Positions 1,075 to 64,000 of a DNA stretch of 64,000 nucleotides are shown here, piece by piece (position 1 is the first letter of the stretch; each line of letters starts with the position of its first letter). The stretch lies in IMG/VR virus record IMGVR_UViG_2740892449_000004; one strand, written 5' to 3'. Made by a program: the position numbers and the translations under genes. The notes beneath the pieces were generated by a model. The model was given only the letters and a program-made list of their open reading frames with translations, had not been told where the DNA came from and did no database searches. Source of the DNA: a virus. Lineage: Duplodnaviria; Heunggongvirae; Uroviricota; Caudoviricetes.

Positions 1075-1338
1075 ATGACATTTTATGTACATATCGTGAT
1101 GTTATCCCTTCTTGGTGGGGTGTATTCGTATTTGAGTGGGCTATGTGAAAACCGTTACGAGTCTTCATGCAAGAAATTGCTGGCCGAATGTATTTCCGCC
1201 GTACTTGCTGGCTTTATTGGCATGTATCTCGCGGAATATAAGGATATGAATGAAAGCCTTCAGAGCTGCATGGTTCTTATTTTCAGCGCCAATAGCAGGC
1301 TTATTATTGAAGGTTCCAAAAGTCGGTTGAATAGGTAA
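1075..1338 (+). CDS. Small hypothetical membrane protein
   Basis: ORF track; two hydrophobic segments; no recognisable family. Confidence 0.35.
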   Translation: MTFYVHIVMLSLLGGVYSYLSGLCENRYESSCKKLLAECISAVLAGFIGMYLAEYKDMNESLQSCMVLIFSANSRLIIEGSKSRLNR

Positions 1339-1412
1339 GTCTCTTATGCAACATAACCGGTTGAGAAGTTACTTTGCATACCATTACCTCCTGACAACGT
1401 AGGAGGGAACTT

Positions 1413-1742
1413 GTGCTTGACACACAGGAATTAGCTCCAGTTGCTATTGCGCTCCTGCTTTCAGTAATTGGTGGGATAGGCACGTTCCTGATGGATGTCC
1501 GAGACGGTCGCCAGTCTGGCAATTTGTTGGGATTGGTTACGGAGATCTTTGTTGCAGTGACAGCTGGCGCGGTGGCGTACCTATTGGGGCAACACGAGGG
1601 CTGGGAGTTATCAATTACGTACTTAATGGTAACGATAGCCAGCAATAACGGTCATGAGGTGATTTCAGGGATGAAACGAGTGAATATCGATAGCATTCTG
1701 AATGTTCTTACAAGTTTGGTGAAAAAGGGAGGCGGGAAATGA
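1413..1742 (+). CDS. lydA: Holin, LydA-like
   Basis: GTG start with AGGAGGG RBS at 1401-1407; 109 aa with hydrophobic helices and charged C-tail; followed by overlapping antiholin as in P1. Confidence 0.7.
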   Translation: MLDTQELAPVAIALLLSVIGGIGTFLMDVRDGRQSGNLLGLVTEIFVAVTAGAVAYLLGQHEGWELSITYLMVTIASNNGHEVISGMKRVNIDSILNVLTSLVKKGGGK

Positions 1743-2182
1743 TTGGCTGGGGTGTATGCGTTCTTGCGTTAGCCTTAGCCGATCGCTATTTGCTAAAACG
1801 CAAGGACATCACGCATTTAGAACTTGGTGATGTGGAAATTAAACCGGGTTTCATCCGGGTGCCGTTCAAATACCGGTCTAAATTCCCGTTTTTGCGCGGC
1901 GCAACGGTCAGATATTGGATCCGCGATGTTCAGAAGCCGACGACAGTGATTGAAGGCGAACAACGTTGTTTGACGTCGGCTGAACAGGGCGAAAACAGTG
2001 AATGGTTGTACATACCCACTGAATATATGGGTAAAGGAGAGCGACTGTGGCATTTCAACGTCATGGTTACGCATGGCGACTCGTTCATTAACCCGTTGTA
2101 TCGGATTTTCCCTGTTACTCAGCAAATCCGCAGAAGTTACGTAATAAATCTCGCACAGGATGTGTCAGATGACGAAAAATAA
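1739..2182 (+). CDS. lydB: Antiholin, LydB-like
   Basis: ATGA start-stop overlap with lydA; 147 aa; operon position as P1 lydB. Confidence 0.6.
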   Translation: MIGWGVCVLALALADRYLLKRKDITHLELGDVEIKPGFIRVPFKYRSKFPFLRGATVRYWIRDVQKPTTVIEGEQRCLTSAEQGENSEWLYIPTEYMGKGERLWHFNVMVTHGDSFINPLYRIFPVTQQIRRSYVINLAQDVSDDEK

Positions 2183-2771
2183 GTATGCAACGGTCGATTT
2201 TGACCAGGTTAATGAAAAGGGGCTGAAATCCCTTATCGCGGCGATCAATAAAACCGGTGTTACGGTAATTGAGGTTGACTCCAGCAACCGCGCAACAACG
2301 AAAGATGGCGTTAAAGTTAAAACCGCAAAGCTGGTTCTTAACGACGGACAAATTCTTGCCATACAGGTAAACGATACTGGCGATATATCGTCTGTGAGGC
2401 TGAATGGAAAAGCTATTCCTAACGCTCAATCGCCGGATATCAAGACGCTTGGTACCGTCATGGGGCAAGCGGCCCGCAAAAACTCCGCAAAATTCCAGAA
2501 ATCACTGATCGCCAAAGCGAAACGTGTTGCCAATCCGGTAGACAAGAAACCGGCAGTAAAATCCAACTTTCAGCGCCTGCAAGAGGCAAAACAGCGGAAT
2601 GCTCAGGTGGTTGCCGCTTATAAATCAGCGCAGAACTCGGTGTCTTTCAATCAACAGCAGATCACTGATTTGCGGGCGAAGCTGGATAAGGAGACAGGCC
2701 GACTCAATAACGAAAAGGCCCGAAATGGCGAACTCAAACGCCGTCTTAAGCAACTGAAAGCAGGAAATTAA
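2169..2771 (+). CDS. darA-operon protein with C-terminal coiled coil (possibly Hdf, by position only)
   Basis: ORF track 2160..2771; ATG at 2169 after AGGA; Lys/Ala-rich coiled-coil C-terminus; directly upstream of darA-like gene. Confidence 0.55.
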   Translation: MTKNKYATVDFDQVNEKGLKSLIAAINKTGVTVIEVDSSNRATTKDGVKVKTAKLVLNDGQILAIQVNDTGDISSVRLNGKAIPNAQSPDIKTLGTVMGQAARKNSAKFQKSLIAKAKRVANPVDKKPAVKSNFQRLQEAKQRNAQVVAAYKSAQNSVSFNQQQITDLRAKLDKETGRLNNEKARNGELKRRLKQLKAGN

Positions 2772-2772
2772 C

Positions 2773-4662
2773 ATGGAACAGTTCAATATCAATAAAGGGG
2801 TGACGATCAAGCCTGGGCTTGACGTGCTTCCCCCGCCAGTGACTGATGATGAATATCGCGCATTAATGGCCGGTGAGGACCGCTATCTGATGACGGAATC
2901 CAACACCCTGGAGGAAATCGAGGCTACGTTCTTCTATGACACGCCGATCCACTGGTGTGCTACGGATTTACTGGAGGCGATTAGTTCTACTCGTTTGCAG
3001 TTACACCGGACCATGCAGGCATTTGTCCGGGCATTGAACCAGAAGCTGAATGGTACCGGAATCTCTGCGGGGAGTGATAAAACGGGGGATGTGGCCCAGA
3101 GCGGCGCGCGCGCGATCGGCGGCGCTGAAATTGGCCGGGCACGTAACGTTAACGGGCTGCCGGTCTTGCCAGCCATTATTCCGCTCAGTGATGGTCAGAC
3201 TATCAGCATTCTGTTTCATAGCCCGACAGCGGAAAACCGGATCACCAATAGCGATACGCTGGTTGCTTTCCAGTTCTTACTGAATAAAAAAGACGTTACT
3301 CACACCGTTGCTCCGATGAGTGGACGTGATATGACGCTGGCGCAGGTCACCATGAAACTTGCCAACCTTGCAGAGAAAAACTCGGCAAAATTCCAGCGTG
3401 CGCAGAAGAAGAAAAAAGCCCTTGTTGATGAAATAACCCAACTACAGGCTGACAGTGACCAGAAAGAGGATGCCATGAGCGACCTCGCGGATCAGGTGGC
3501 AGCGGTAGAAGGGCAGAAGGCAGATCTGGAGCAGAAAATTAACGCTGTTGCATCGGAAGCGGATTCTCTTTATGAAGAGAATGAGCGTTTGCAGACGGAG
3601 ATTGATCAGCTCAATCGCACTGGTGGGCGCGGTACCATTGCTCCAGCGGGGATGACTGGTGGGCACTCTCGCGCGCTGACGGATCGCCTTGCCAGTATCA
3701 AAAATCGTATGCATATGGACGGGGAAGTGACGCTCAGTAATGGTGCATCAATGAAGCAATTCATTGGGGGCGGCGAAGGGTATATCCAGTTAACCGATCC
3801 GGATGGCAGCGTATACATGATCAAGGCTAAATCCATACAGGGTGTGGACATGGCAGATGCGATCGGCAAGCTGTTTAAAGCCTATAAAGCGGGTAATGTA
3901 TCGGAATACCTGGTCCAACCAGAAGAACATAAACCGGAAAACGTCGAACCTGAACCAGCGGAGGATACCGGTAGCTCTTCGCCTGAACCAGAAGTCTCTG
4001 TAGGTGCATATCGATATGCCCTGCAAATGCGTCCGGCGGCCCCTGGCGCAATACCTGAAGGTAACAAAGCAATTCTGCCGCGCCCTGATGAAGGTGACCC
4101 GTATTATGAATATGCACGCTACGGCATTGCTACTTACGATACCCCGCTTTCTGATCAGCAAATGAGTGAGTACGACCTGAAGTTATTGCCTCGCGAGGAT
4201 TCTTTCGACTTCCTGGCGAAGACACTTACTAATGGTCCGTTTGGCAAATATGCACAAAAAGCTCTGGAGCTGGCCACCAGCTCACCAGACGAGTTCCGCG
4301 TAATGCTGAAAACTCAGTTTCAAAAAACTTTCCCCAATATTGCGTTTCCTGGGGGCGCTGGCACCGAGAAAATGGTGCAGAGCATGATCAATGCATTGCA
4401 GGCCGAAGTCGGTGAGATTACTCAGCCAGAACCGGCCCCGGCACAGCCTGATGAAACGGTTAGCGAAGCAGATGCAGAGGCTAATAAAGCCATTGAATAT
4501 CTCAATAACGTGATGGATATACAAAGCACTGACATGGCGGAGATCCGTAACGCCCGGGGCAATGTCCGGGAAGCGATTGCAGCCTTCAGGCTGCCGGACG
4601 TTTTGAGGAAAACGAAGAGCTGGTTAACGGCGCAGCTCGCCACCTGGCTGATCTGTTGGTAG
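2773..4662 (+). CDS. darA: DarA-like internal head / antirestriction protein precursor
   Basis: 629-aa ORF, start overlaps upstream stop (TAACATGG); central coiled coil; identity inferred from synteny (lydA-lydB-...-darA, darB elsewhere in window), not from a motif. Confidence 0.55.
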   Translation: MEQFNINKGVTIKPGLDVLPPPVTDDEYRALMAGEDRYLMTESNTLEEIEATFFYDTPIHWCATDLLEAISSTRLQLHRTMQAFVRALNQKLNGTGISAGSDKTGDVAQSGARAIGGAEIGRARNVNGLPVLPAIIPLSDGQTISILFHSPTAENRITNSDTLVAFQFLLNKKDVTHTVAPMSGRDMTLAQVTMKLANLAEKNSAKFQRAQKKKKALVDEITQLQADSDQKEDAMSDLADQVAAVEGQKADLEQKINAVASEADSLYEENERLQTEIDQLNRTGGRGTIAPAGMTGGHSRALTDRLASIKNRMHMDGEVTLSNGASMKQFIGGGEGYIQLTDPDGSVYMIKAKSIQGVDMADAIGKLFKAYKAGNVSEYLVQPEEHKPENVEPEPAEDTGSSSPEPEVSVGAYRYALQMRPAAPGAIPEGNKAILPRPDEGDPYYEYARYGIATYDTPLSDQQMSEYDLKLLPREDSFDFLAKTLTNGPFGKYAQKALELATSSPDEFRVMLKTQFQKTFPNIAFPGGAGTEKMVQSMINALQAEVGEITQPEPAPAQPDETVSEADAEANKAIEYLNNVMDIQSTDMAEIRNARGNVREAIAAFRLPDVLRKTKSWLTAQLATWLICW

Positions 4663-11006: not shown

Positions 11007-11029
11007 AACAAGTGATTTGCATTATCCTG
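11007..11029 (+). promoter_or_regulatory. Candidate late-promoter element upstream of lyz
   Basis: AACAAGTGA core shared with elements upstream of prt, the 48378 operon and the 62091 operon, followed by a -10-like CATTAT. Confidence 0.35.
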
Positions 11030-11115
11030 TGCCTTCTAAAGGGATCGAGTCAGTCGGTATTGGCTGTGAATGGGTGTTTGTCCTGGAGCGTAAAAAATTC
11101 GCTTATGAGGTCTTT

Positions 11116-11673
11116 ATGAAGGGAAAAACAGCCGCAGGAGGCGGTGCAATTTGCGCTATCGCGGTGATGATTACCATCGTGATGGGTAATGGCAATGTGC
11201 GAACCAACCAGGCGGGGCTTGAGCTGATTGGTAACGCTGAAGGTTGCCGACGTGATCCATACATGTGCCCGGCGGGTGTATGGACTGACGGGATTGGTAA
11301 TACACACGGGGTAACGCCAGGCGTGCGAAAAACCGACCAGCAAATCGCCGCTGATTGGGAAAAGAATATCCTGATCGCTGAACGCTGTATTAACCAGCAC
11401 TTCCGGGGCAAAGACATGCCCGATAATGCCTTCAGCGCAATGACAAGCGCGGCATTCAATATGGGATGCAATAGTTTACGGACCTACTACAGCAAAGCGC
11501 GAGGCATGCGAGTAGAAACGTCCATCCACAAGTGGGCGCAGAAAGGAGAATGGGTGAATATGTGTAACCATCTCCCTGATTTCGTGAACAGTAACGGCGT
11601 GCCCCTGCGAGGTTTAAAGATTCGCCGTGAAAAAGAACGCCAGCTTTGCCTGACGGGACTGGTCAATGAATAA
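11116..11673 (+). CDS. lyz: SAR endolysin (lysozyme)
   Basis: ATG at 11116 with GAGG RBS; N-terminal SAR segment GGGAICAIAVMITIVMG; matches P1 Lyz from memory. Confidence 0.95.
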   Translation: MKGKTAAGGGAICAIAVMITIVMGNGNVRTNQAGLELIGNAEGCRRDPYMCPAGVWTDGIGNTHGVTPGVRKTDQQIAADWEKNILIAERCINQHFRGKDMPDNAFSAMTSAAFNMGCNSLRTYYSKARGMRVETSIHKWAQKGEWVNMCNHLPDFVNSNGVPLRGLKIRREKERQLCLTGLVNE

Positions 11674-11920
11674 ACTCCGGCAGCTCCGCCGACTTTCGAC
11701 AATGAAGTTATCGCTGGCGGCGATAGTTTTTGACTCGATTTTCATGGCGGTATATGTGCTCAATGAGACGTGGCCACTGGAACCGCTATTATATGCCGGG
11801 CTTCGGCTGTGCCTGACATTTTTGAGCATGGCTGCAAGATTGATGCAGCAGAAAGAAACCGCTTCAGATTGTCCACGCCGCGCGGTGCGCAAATATATGG
11901 CACGCAGGCGAAGGCGATAA
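11666..11920 (+). CDS. Small hypothetical membrane protein overlapping lyz stop
   Basis: ORF track 84 aa; ATGA-type overlap with lyz; hydrophobic core and Arg-rich C-terminus. Confidence 0.3.
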   Translation: MNKLRQLRRLSTMKLSLAAIVFDSIFMAVYVLNETWPLEPLLYAGLRLCLTFLSMAARLMQQKETASDCPRRAVRKYMARRRRR

Positions 11921-11933
11921 TAGTTAACGAGAA

Positions 11934-11959
11934 CCCCGGCAGCCGCCGGGGTTATTTTT
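11934..11959 (+). terminator. Intrinsic terminator between convergent lyz region and pro
   Basis: Hairpin CCCCGGC-AGC-GCCGGGG followed by TTATTTTT. Confidence 0.5.
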
Positions 11960-11964
11960 GGTGG

Positions 11965-14695
<2,731 letters not shown>

Positions 14696-14733
14696 TTAAT
14701 TAGAATAATTCGCATCGTGTTTGAACGGAATTT

Positions 14734-61645: not shown

Positions 61646-61994
61646 GTTGTAACCCTTGAATATCAACCACAGAAAGCTCGTTTTTGTAGAAAAAGGCCAG
61701 GTTGAGGCACCCCCTAGTTTGAGCGTATGAGCTGGGACCAATTTCGTTCTTCCAGACAAATGGCTTCAAATCCGTACGGCGAAGCATAAAAACGCGATTT
61801 GTTCCGCTCTGATTCCCAATGAGGCAAAAGCCTTCTTTCACCTTGATAGCCTGCAAGTTGTCGAGTTCACCGCTGGTTACACGGCTATCGAACTCTTTGC
61901 GGCTTATTAGCTCCATCTGCATCTGACGACTCCAAACAAATACCCATTGAAGGGCGATGGCTGAATGGTACCGAAAACACGACATAAAAAACAA
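61638..61994 (-). CDS. uhr: Hypothetical protein upstream of hrdC
   Basis: ORF track 118 aa; stop overlaps hrdC start; operator at its start. Confidence 0.45.
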
Positions 61995-62010
61995 TATTTA
62001 TTAGAGCAAT
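61994..62010. promoter_or_regulatory. C1 operator-like 17-mer between divergent operons
   Basis: ATATTTATTAGAGCAAT, 16/17. Confidence 0.6.
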
Positions 62011-62036
62011 CATGCAATAGTTAACACCATATAGAC

Positions 62037-62058
62037 CACAAGTAACCTAAGTTAAAAT
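62037..62058 (+). promoter_or_regulatory. Candidate late-promoter element
   Basis: CACAAGTAACCTAAGTTAAAAT resembles AACAAGTGACTAGTGTTAAATT upstream of prt. Confidence 0.3.
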
Positions 62059-62090
62059 AACGAAAACCAGAGCAAATAATTGGTGATGAC

Positions 62091-62375
62091 GTGGCAAGTA
62101 TTGCAACAAAAGACAGCATTTGTTCGGGGCACGGAGGATTCCCATCCAGGCCTCCTGTAGAGAGTGAACCACTACTTAAAGTCAACGGAGTCGAAGTGTT
62201 AGTTGATGGTAAGCAATATGCACAGCATACCGATGGAAACAGTACGCACGGTGGGCAAGCTATATCAACCAGGGCATGGTTTACCGTCAATGGTAAAGGG
62301 ATCGTATGCGTTGGTGACCCTGTTTCATGCGGATCTACCGTAGCGTCCGGAGACGGCCTGGTTCAGGTAAGTTAG
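62091..62375 (+). CDS. PAAR-like spike-tip protein
   Basis: 94 aa; CSGHGG...NGVEV...VCVGDPVSCGSTVASG pattern; GTG start. Confidence 0.45.
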   Translation: MASIATKDSICSGHGGFPSRPPVESEPLLKVNGVEVLVDGKQYAQHTDGNSTHGGQAISTRAWFTVNGKGIVCVGDPVSCGSTVASGDGLVQVS

Positions 62376-62383
62376 GAGATATC

Positions 62384-63172
62384 ATGCTGGAAAAAGACTA
62401 CCAGTTATCCGCATATAAAAAATTGGCCGCCGCCGGTGGGATGAAAACACCTGGTGCCATAACATCGGCACGAAACAGTGCTAACACAGCAAAACTGCTT
62501 GCAGAAGAATTGACCGGATTAATTCTGGATACAATTGTCTATCCCGACACTATTACCAGCTATGTTTCAACGATCAGAACAACCACAACCGGCTTAACGA
62601 ACATTGGAGAACTGGCAACTAAGCACGCGGACCTGTTGGCTGGTTATGCTGATCTGTCAATGCTCCTTCAACTCGATATTGGTTGGGATGTTTACTGTCG
62701 TGCTAATGAGCGAGAAGTATCAGAACTGCCGATCTCTATTGCCATTGGTGATGTGACTATTACTAAATCGCTTGAGGACGCTGTAAACGCGCTTAATACA
62801 TCAAGTTTAGTCGCTGCTATGGGGGAGATTAACCAGACCCTTAACACTGGCTCAGGAAGCTCGTCAGGCTCTGGTTCAGGCGGCGGCACTGCCACTCCCC
62901 CACCAGCACTAACAGAAGAGCAAATTGAATCTCTGAAAGTAGCAACTGAACAGTTTGGGGTTGTTTTCAACCAGACAACAGCGCCCACAACTGCGTTACA
63001 ACAGCAGTATGAACGAGCGAATGAAAGCGCCAACGTAGCCATAACTGCTTATAACCATGCTATCGGTACCGCGCTTGCGGAAGCATCAGCAAATAAGGTC
63101 AGCACAGCCAGCGCAGTTGCCGCTTTGGTTCCTGATTCTGTTCTTGATGAATTAAACAAAGCGGCACAGTAA
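62384..63172 (+). CDS. Hypothetical protein with Gly/Ser-rich linker
   Basis: ORF track 62327..63172; ATG at 62384 after AGGAG; linker TGSGSSSGSGSGGGTATPPP. Confidence 0.5.
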   Translation: MLEKDYQLSAYKKLAAAGGMKTPGAITSARNSANTAKLLAEELTGLILDTIVYPDTITSYVSTIRTTTTGLTNIGELATKHADLLAGYADLSMLLQLDIGWDVYCRANEREVSELPISIAIGDVTITKSLEDAVNALNTSSLVAAMGEINQTLNTGSGSSSGSGSGGGTATPPPALTEEQIESLKVATEQFGVVFNQTTAPTTALQQQYERANESANVAITAYNHAIGTALAEASANKVSTASAVAALVPDSVLDELNKAAQ

Positions 63173-63211
63173 CAAAGGACTTCATTGATAATTTTTCTTC
63201 AGGAGGAAGAC

Positions 63212-63634
63212 ATGTCATTCTTTTCTACGTTAAAAACAGCTTTGTCTTTGAAGGAGAAACTTGCTGCTACTGGTGTTCTTGTTCTGATTTGCGCACTTGT
63301 TGGTGCTGGGTTTGCATGGGAACGTCATCAGCTAAAGCAAGCCATGGAGAAAATTGGCAGTCTTGATCAGGCTGTTAAGGAACGTGATAAGTCAATAATG
63401 GATCTTAACCAGACCATTGAGACGATGAACAAAGCAGAGCAACATTTTCACAGCCAGGAAGTGAAAAATGAATCAGAACAAGCCAAATATGCTGACAGGC
63501 AAATGGAACGAAAAGCTGAAGTTCAGAAACAACTGGTTGCGGCGGGTAATGTTCGCCAGCGCATTCCTGCTGACACTCAGCGGTTGCTCCGGGAGTCGAT
63601 CAGCGAATTTAACGCCGACGCCGACAAAGGTTAA
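63212..63634 (+). CDS. i-spanin-like (Rz-type) protein
   Basis: ATG at 63212 after GGAGGAAG; N-terminal TM then coiled coil; lipoprotein ORF embedded in the +1 frame. Confidence 0.55.
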   Translation: MSFFSTLKTALSLKEKLAATGVLVLICALVGAGFAWERHQLKQAMEKIGSLDQAVKERDKSIMDLNQTIETMNKAEQHFHSQEVKNESEQAKYADRQMERKAEVQKQLVAAGNVRQRIPADTQRLLRESISEFNADADKG

Positions 63635-63800
63635 CCACCCTGCCCCCAAAAGTGCATTTATGTGCAGAATGCCAGAGTTTAGCAGTGAATATTTTGATGA
63701 TCTGCCAGCGTATATCCTCGATACAGAAACGATGCTGAAGGGGATTAACAGGAAGAATCGCAACGTTAATGATTACAACCGTGCTATCAGCGGTAACTAA
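63549..63800 (+). CDS. o-spanin-like (Rz1-type) lipoprotein, overlapping frame
   Basis: ORF track 63468..63800; internal ATG at 63549 gives signal peptide with lipobox LTLSGC and Pro-rich mature part. Confidence 0.5.
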   Translation: MFASAFLLTLSGCSGSRSANLTPTPTKVNHPAPKSAFMCRMPEFSSEYFDDLPAYILDTETMLKGINRKNRNVNDYNRAISGN

Positions 63801-63811
63801 AAGGAAAAACT

Positions 63812-64000
63812 ATGTCCGATATGGAAATTGAAAAAGAGATTCTGGCCAAAGGCAAAACAGCACCACGCCTGACTCCTGATCACATCGAGAGTGTGATTGC
63901 CGAAGAGCATTATTTCACAGCTTTTGACGGCATTCGCGCTGCGCACGAAGGCGTTCGTGAGGTGCTGTCTGTTCATCCCTCTACGCGTAGCCTGACCATC
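63812..64000 (+). CDS. Partial hypothetical CDS running off the window end
   Basis: ATG at 63812 after AAGGA; open frame MSDMEIEKEILAKGKTAPRL... to the end of the window. Confidence 0.4.
   Translation, partial: MSDMEIEKEILAKGKTAPRLTPDHIESVIAEEHYFTAFDGIRAAHEGVREVLSVHPSTRSLTI

Follow-up and report, generated by a model that had tools for sequence, protein, structure and literature searches.

Two overlapping genes near the end of the 64-kb stretch of DNA analyzed here (referred to below as the window), far from its lyz and holin genes, are ppfA and mlp of a P1-like (Punavirus) phage-plasmid, and they very likely encode a two-component spanin, in which PpfA is the predicted i-spanin and Mlp the predicted o-spanin. 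An earlier note on this DNA had remarked on the position of the two genes and had read them as a spanin pair; the first point is confirmed, and the second is supported by the features of both sequences, by matches to PHROG spanin profiles and by the prediction already made for ppfA/mlp in the P1 literature. The pair and its predicted role in the last step of lysis, the breach of the host outer membrane, are thus already known.

The ppfA/mlp locus and its surroundings

The + strand of the window runs opposite to the P1 reference. Bases 63100-63804 correspond to 63350-64054 of P1 (NC_005856) with 98.9% nucleotide identity over 705 bases, and PpfA and Mlp are 99.3 and 97.3% identical, respectively, to the P1 proteins at the amino acid level; the two genes are orthologs of P1 ppfA (P1_gp064) and mlp (P1_gp063). 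The gene order upfC-upfB-ppfA-mlp is that of P1, and the lengths of the two genes, the offset between their frames and their upstream neighbors upfC and upfB are identical in the two elements, which differ in this pair by a few substitutions only and in the gene that lies downstream of mlp. In the P1 record (NC_005856) ppfA is labeled "possible periplasmic function" and mlp [quoted passage not shown]; the current RefSeq name of mlp is "Rz-like spanin," and several other GenBank and RefSeq records of P1-like elements name the pair Rz/Rz1 or "Rz-like spanin." The features of the locus and of the other lysis loci are listed in Table 1.

Table 1. Positions in the window of the ppfA/mlp pair, its upstream neighbors and the other lysis genes
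Feature	Position	Strand	Description and basis
Lysis locus 1	1075-2182	+	lydC, LPdar, lydA, lydB
lydC	1075-1338	+	Lysis locus 1
Late promoter LPdar	1366-1384	+	Lysis locus 1
lydA	1413-1742	+	Holin; lysis locus 1
lydB	1739-2182	+	Antiholin; lysis locus 1
Lysis locus 2	11010-11985	+	LPlyz, lyz, lydD, lydE
Late promoter LPlyz	11010-11028	+	Lysis locus 2
lyz	11116-11673	+	SAR-endolysin; lysis locus 2
lydD	11666-11920	+	Lysis locus 2
lydE	11770-11985	+	Lysis locus 2
upfC	62091-62375	+	Upstream; PAAR-type tail spike tip (PF05488, E 8.5e-6; P1 annotation)
upfB	62327-63172	+	Upstream; "tripod" protein attached to the spike tip; gap of 39 nt to ppfA
Shine-Dalgarno AGGAGG of ppfA	63201-63206	+	6 nt 5' of the ATG; from sequence
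ppfA	63212-63634	+	ORF, ATG to stop, 140 aa; predicted i-spanin, type II membrane protein
Transmembrane helix LAATGVLVLICALVGAGFAW	63260-63319	+	ppfA codons 17-36; hydropathy maximum
Shine-Dalgarno AGGAAG of mlp	63456-63461	+	Within ppfA, 7 nt 5' of the ATG; from sequence
mlp	63468-63800	+	ORF, ATG to stop, 110 aa, +1 frame relative to ppfA; predicted o-spanin (precursor of an outer-membrane lipoprotein)
Two-frame stretch	63468-63634	+	167 nt; last 55 ppfA codons and, in the +1 frame, the Mlp signal peptide and first mature residues
Lipobox L-S-G-C	63576-63587	+	Mlp residues 37-40; PROSITE-type pattern match
Cys66 codon of Mlp	63663-63665	+	Sole periplasmic cysteine of the pair; candidate intermolecular disulfide

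The two upstream genes encode components of the tail tip; by cryo-EM published in 2026, UpfC is the tail spike tip and UpfB a "tripod" attached to that tip (PMC12810830). They overlap by 49 nt and, although both products are virion baseplate proteins by cryo-EM, both genes scored as nonessential in the CRISPRi screen discussed below. The common strand, the short gap of 39 nt and the absence of any terminator-like site between upfB and ppfA point to co-transcription, so that ppfA and mlp probably share their transcript with upfC and upfB. A scan of bases 61700-64000 for sigma-70 promoters and terminators gave no more sites than were found in shuffled sequences, and the P1 annotation gives ppfA weak predicted sigma-70 promoters only and no late promoter.

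Late promoters of the Lpa type were sought with a pattern (-22 box plus -10) that was built from LPdar and LPlyz and that matched with one mismatch at 62040-62058 (+), AAGTAACCTAAGTTAAAAT, 33 nt upstream of upfC; the -22 box of the P1 counterpart, AAATAATCT, has three mismatches, and divergent relatives have nothing there. This site was rejected as a late promoter because it is degenerate in P1 itself and absent from the divergent relatives. No convincing late promoter for ppfA/mlp was found with this pattern, which counts against the spanin reading. The pattern also matched at 14729(-), 24290(-), 31292(-) and 50034(+), and these sites may be known late promoters.

Downstream of the pair, P1 has upfA and then the plasmid origin oriR/repA. 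The DNA that follows the mlp stop in the window (63805-64000) is not P1 upfA, and its only match at the DNA level is to phage vB_EcoM-813R1; a gene starting at 63812 belongs to phrog_322 and has weak similarity to Gp49/PF13876. In two divergent P1-like plasmids (L082 and L083) a PF13876 gene also follows mlp. The change of DNA directly after mlp places a mosaic boundary at the end of this gene, next to the plasmid replicon.

The remaining lysis genes lie tens of kilobases away, lydA-lydB and lyz just where the earlier note had located them. Its statement that the lysis genes are divided among three loci is correct for the window, and the genes it listed (lydA, lydB, lyz and the spanin genes) all belong there, but lydC, lydD and lydE were overlooked. 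Such scattering of lysis genes is a described peculiarity of P1 (PMC9025707). No second spanin candidate was found in the 64-kb window.

Predicted products and gene overlap

PpfA has a single hydrophobic stretch (residues 17-35, LAATGVLVLICALVGAGFA; Kyte-Doolittle 19-residue mean 2.35), and the N-terminal side of this helix is net basic, which predicts an N-in/C-out orientation. An AlphaFold model built on 20 homologs (mean pLDDT about 71) consists of two helices (residues 13-110 and 120-139) separated by a break at 111-119, and residues about 46-73 display a heptad pattern of hydrophobic a and d positions that was equaled by only 24 of 2000 shuffled sequences. Hydropathy, model and heptad pattern thus agree on one N-terminal transmembrane helix followed by a mainly helical, coiled-coil domain, as is expected of an i-spanin, and bear out the description of the outer ORF as transmembrane plus coiled coil. 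PpfA matches the PHROG profile phrog_89 ("Rz-like spanin") with an E value of 1.2e-25; among PDB sequences the only match of its profile was a chance one to ribosomal protein uS14 (E 0.04). The protein has no cysteine outside the membrane helix.

The start of Mlp reads MNQNKPNMLTGKWNEKLKFRNNWLRRVMFASAFLLTLSGC|SGSRSANLTPTPTKVNHPAPK..., with a basic region, a hydrophobic core and the lipobox LSGC. The predicted signal peptide ends in ASAFLLTLSGC, in which the cysteine is residue 40, and position +2 is occupied by Ser41 and not by Asp, so that sorting to the outer membrane is predicted, with no retention signal. A lipobox with its cysteine and no Asp at +2 (PROSITE-type pattern) is what is expected of an o-spanin lipoprotein, and the claim of a lipoprotein ORF with the lipobox LTLSGC in the +1 frame of the outer gene holds, mlp starting 256 nt after ppfA. 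The mature part was said to be proline-rich, and it is so to a moderate degree: 6 of its 71 residues are proline (8.5%), rising to 14% in the first 35. It consists of a linker containing proline and threonine followed by a well-conserved C-terminal segment of 45 residues. The AlphaFold model of Mlp is weak (pLDDT 56) and suggests a disordered linker and, at most, a possibly helical C-terminus. Two PHROG profiles, both named "Rz-like spanin," match the protein (phrog_30284, E 3e-76; phrog_456, E 1.3e-5).

If translation of mlp begins at 63468, the signal peptide is 39 aa long, which is unusual and counts against the spanin reading. No other start codon lies between this ATG and the in-frame stop upstream of it. 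Initiation at an alternative in-frame codon, TTG 63537, would yield MRRVMFASAFLLTLSGC, which has the form of a textbook short lipoprotein signal and aligns with Met1 of P2 LysC; ATG 63549 is a further alternative. These two codons are not conserved among P1-like elements and are not preceded by a ribosome-binding site; the first ATG alone is kept throughout with such a site, and the 23-residue basic N-terminal extension that begins there is variable in sequence and always present in P1-like elements. The earlier note had named a missing lipoprotein signal or an unusable start of the inner ORF as grounds for abandoning its reading, and neither applies, as LSGC and an ATG preceded by AGGAAG are both present.

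The mlp gene overlaps ppfA with its own start and its own ribosome-binding site, the arrangement expected of an o-spanin gene, and it extends 166 nt beyond the ppfA stop, as had been claimed for its mature part. In an embedded architecture the o-spanin gene lies wholly inside the i-spanin gene, whereas mlp ends at 63800 and the ppfA stop is at 63634. As ppfA thus encloses only part of mlp, the pair belongs to the "overlapped" class in spanin nomenclature. The word "embedded" in the heading of the earlier note was therefore wrong; of its phrase "classic overlapped Rz/Rz1," "overlapped" is accurate, but the layout is of the P2 lysB/lysC type and not that of λ.

Function and maintenance of the pair

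The genes ppfA and mlp have been named as the spanin genes of P1, partly overlapping and in an operon that is unlinked to the other lysis genes (Bednarek et al. 2022, PMC9025707); the assignment rests on predicted features and is attributed to Summer et al. 2007 (PMC9025707). The introduction of the 2022 paper calls ppfA the o-spanin and mlp the i-spanin, and the sequences are the reverse. Since PpfA has the membrane helix and Mlp the lipobox, the labels are swapped in this review-style sentence, which is a point of practical importance. In a genome-wide CRISPRi screen the efficiencies of plating were 1.3/1.2 for ppfA and 0.24/0.19 for mlp, and both genes scored as nonessential for P1 plaques; λ Rz scored as essential in the same study. 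Spanins are, however, dispensable in shaken laboratory cultures (PMC9025707), and as they are dispensable under some laboratory conditions the CRISPRi result does not refute the spanin assignment, although it leaves a small chance of redundancy or of another role.

It is unlikely that ppfA and mlp form a real and conserved envelope pair with a main role other than lysis, for example superinfection exclusion, participation with UpfC/UpfB in infection or ejection, or a function in the lysogen next to the plasmid replicon. Such roles would agree with the location of the pair, which is flanked by the tail-tip genes and the plasmid replicon and lies apart from the lysis genes (the position outside any lysis cassette counts against the spanin reading), with the nonessentiality seen by CRISPRi, with the P1 annotation of weak predicted sigma-70 promoters and no late promoter, and with the fact that spanin function of the pair is so far a prediction. 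On the other hand, a type II helical membrane protein together with an outer-membrane lipoprotein in its +1 frame is the recognized signature of spanins, PHROG spanin families match both proteins, Mlp is similar to P2 LysC, and the 64-kb window holds no other spanin candidate, whereas phages of Gram-negative hosts normally encode a spanin; moreover, spanins are in any case dispensable in shaken cultures (PMC9025707). It is quite improbable that the pair is not a dedicated lysis spanin but an envelope module co-expressed with UpfC/UpfB that has another or an additional role, or that P1 has a second, unrecognized way of breaching the outer membrane; if true, such a reading would explain both the intact plaques on knockdown and the distance from the lysis genes.

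Both genes are well preserved among relatives. Products of 140 and 110 aa at the +1 offset are kept in 78 of 80 related IMG/VR viral contigs, and all 22 distinct Mlp variants from these 80 contigs retain the first ATG and LSGC. In P1-like plasmids of Salmonella, Cronobacter and Klebsiella, PpfA is only about 60% identical and the whole 589-nt ppfA/mlp span is free of indels. Divergent P1-like plasmids have a +1 ORF of 109 aa that starts one codon later, with GGAGG at the same place, and its product has Ser at +2, the second cysteine in the sequence FMCRMPE and a very similar C-terminal half. The motif L[SN][GA]C is present in the divergent plasmids L082-L085 and in all 80 IMG/VR loci, and Cys66 is nearly invariant (at least 90%; alignment A2). 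Nucleotide identity to the divergent relatives is 0.77-0.80 in the overlap versus 0.60-0.61 in the part that is ppfA only. In the window and three relatives of about 60% PpfA identity, the +1 frame is interrupted by 6-7 stops in its first 85 codons and is open from codon 86 to codon 195. In the part that is mlp only, pN is about 0.12 and pS 0.58-0.85, whereas pS is lower than pN in the other two frames of the same DNA. Judged by these values the non-overlapped part of mlp is under strong purifying selection, and comparison of the sequences shows that selection has preserved ppfA and mlp alike throughout the P1 group.

At least eight different fusions of PpfA to Mlp, 193-195 aa in length, are present in the protein databases (P0031, P0038, P0044, P0046, P0055, P0066, P0072 and P0002). 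Each fits a single-base deletion in the overlap (63468-63634) that joins an N-terminal part of PpfA to a C-terminal part of Mlp, and two of the junctions are at an A5 run immediately 5' of the mlp ATG. Truncated variants of PpfA are also numerous in the databases. Programmed frameshifting was dropped as the source of the fusions because the junctions occur at many positions and the differences are at the DNA level; the fused and truncated variants may be sequencing errors or natural knock-outs. These many frameshifted forms, fusions included, and the nonessentiality of both genes by CRISPRi could be taken to mean that the pair is a decaying spanin remnant, redundant with another P1 outer-membrane disruptor. 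This is highly improbable, as both genes are intact in 78 of the 80 viral contigs and purifying selection is strong; the junctions of the frameshifted forms are scattered, and errors of sequencing or assembly may account for some or all of the variants.

In the closest deposited relative (L089, ON470617.2, bases 2613-3212) mlp is not annotated, and the automatic gene calls in L082-L085 give a fragment of 46-52 aa or nothing, though the full lipoprotein ORF of 109 aa is present. The absence of mlp from several deposited annotations of P1-like genomes, with automatic gene callers missing it, is another practical point; beyond correct annotation the significance is small, since both the dispersal of the P1 lysis genes and the prediction that ppfA/mlp encode spanins have been published before. 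Of the 365 window ORFs of at least 50 aa, 7 (about 2%) have a loose lipobox pattern, so that the motif by itself proves little. The view that the inner ORF is open by chance and that ppfA is the only gene, as several database records annotate it, would suit this 2% frequency and the omission of mlp from ON470617 and from the gene calls of L082-L085, but it is scarcely credible and is already refuted by the conservation data: relatives whose PpfA has diverged by about 40% still have the ORF with its start, lipobox, second cysteine and length, 110 codons pass with no stop after 6-7 in the preceding 85 of the same frame, pN is 0.12 and pS 0.58-0.85 in the non-overlapped part, the control frames showing the opposite relation, and gene callers are known to under-annotate overlapped o-spanin genes (PMC6139136). 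Its conservation across relatives shows that mlp is a real gene.

Predicted mechanism and comparison with known spanins

As a spanin, the pair would act by analogy with λ Rz/Rz1 and T4 PseT.3/PseT.2, and this applies to the disruption of the outer membrane and to the binding of the two subunits as well (the mechanism of the characterized spanins is taken from PMC6139136). PpfA would be anchored in the inner membrane and extend its helical domain into the periplasm, and Mlp would be lipidated at Cys40, cut by signal peptidase II and sorted by the Lol system to the inner leaflet of the outer membrane. PpfA and Mlp should bind each other through their C-terminal parts and so bridge the periplasm through the peptidoglycan mesh, and Cys66 of Mlp would probably link two o-spanin chains by a disulfide. 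Once the SAR-endolysin Lyz, released by the LydA holin, had removed the wall, the complexes could move sideways and collapse, and the collapsed complexes would fuse the inner and outer membranes and thereby remove the last barrier to phage release.

The pair has a single conserved periplasmic cysteine, Mlp Cys66, and none in PpfA, which suggests that the o-spanin forms a disulfide-linked dimer. Of 528 known spanin pairs, 507 have one or more periplasmic cysteines, as does this one; a total of one is found in 72 of 526 known pairs, and 169 i-spanins have none (PMC6139136).

A Pfam scan of PpfA and Mlp (E up to 1) gave no match to the λ Rz or Rz1 families (Phage_lysis, Rz1); Mlp had no match of any kind, there was otherwise weak coiled-coil noise only, and no model was reached. 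The best NCBIfam matches are to the P2 pair, and both are far below the curated cut-offs for membership (LysB model TIGR03495, 19 bits versus 92.75; LysC model NF038368, 14.9 bits versus 27). In pairwise comparison, Mlp and P2 LysC are similar with a BLASTP E value of 4e-8, in an alignment that begins at TTG 63537, and the mature proteins have a Smith-Waterman score of 52 against 23 +/- 4 in shuffles, a score reached by none of 2000. Mlp is thus at best a distant relative of LysC, being below the NCBIfam cut-off yet significantly similar in the pairwise comparison. For PpfA and P2 LysB, on the other hand, BLASTP, hhalign and the shuffle test were all nonsignificant. Searches of a phage collection with PpfA and Mlp (tblastn, E up to 1e-3) found only P1-like phages and Cronobacter phage JK004, and no bridge to other spanin families at that threshold.

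P2 lysB/lysC have the same layout as ppfA/mlp, with products of 141 and 96 aa, the second gene in the +1 frame, 146 nt shared and 145 nt beyond the first gene, and both pairs adjoin tail genes. The mature parts of P2 LysC and Mlp have in common the pattern PTP...PK...C.MP...DL. The P2 proteins contain more cysteines, whereas the P1-type i-spanin has none in the periplasm and the o-spanin one, and the P2 genes follow those for holin, endolysin and lysA in a lysis cassette, whereas the pair in the window is tens of kilobases from the other lysis genes.

The λ Rz/Rz1 pair has the same predicted topology and mechanism, with a type II helical protein of the inner membrane and an outer-membrane lipoprotein encoded in the +1 frame, but λ Rz1 is embedded wholly inside Rz, whereas mlp passes the ppfA stop, and there is no sequence similarity to PpfA/Mlp (no Pfam Rz or Rz1 match). 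Mature λ Rz1 is a very proline-rich peptide of roughly 40 residues; mature Mlp, in contrast, has 71 residues with a conserved, possibly helical C-terminal part. The three disulfides of the λ pair (Rz C99, Rz C152 and Rz1 C29; PMC6139136) also contrast with the one available cysteine in PpfA/Mlp.

T4 PseT.3/PseT.2 comprise an i-spanin that is free of cysteine in the periplasm and a larger o-spanin that has cysteines and a predicted C-terminal helix (PMC6139136). The P1-type pair resembles them in its i-spanin without periplasmic cysteine, in the placement of cysteine in the larger o-spanin and in the scattering of the lysis genes over the genome. The T4 genes, however, are separated and do not overlap, their products have no sequence similarity to PpfA/Mlp, and PseT.2 has two cysteines, both essential for lysis, where Mlp has one. 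By curated thresholds the ppfA/mlp pair is outside the sequence families of both λ and P2, and it is laid out like the P2 type and predicted to work like it.
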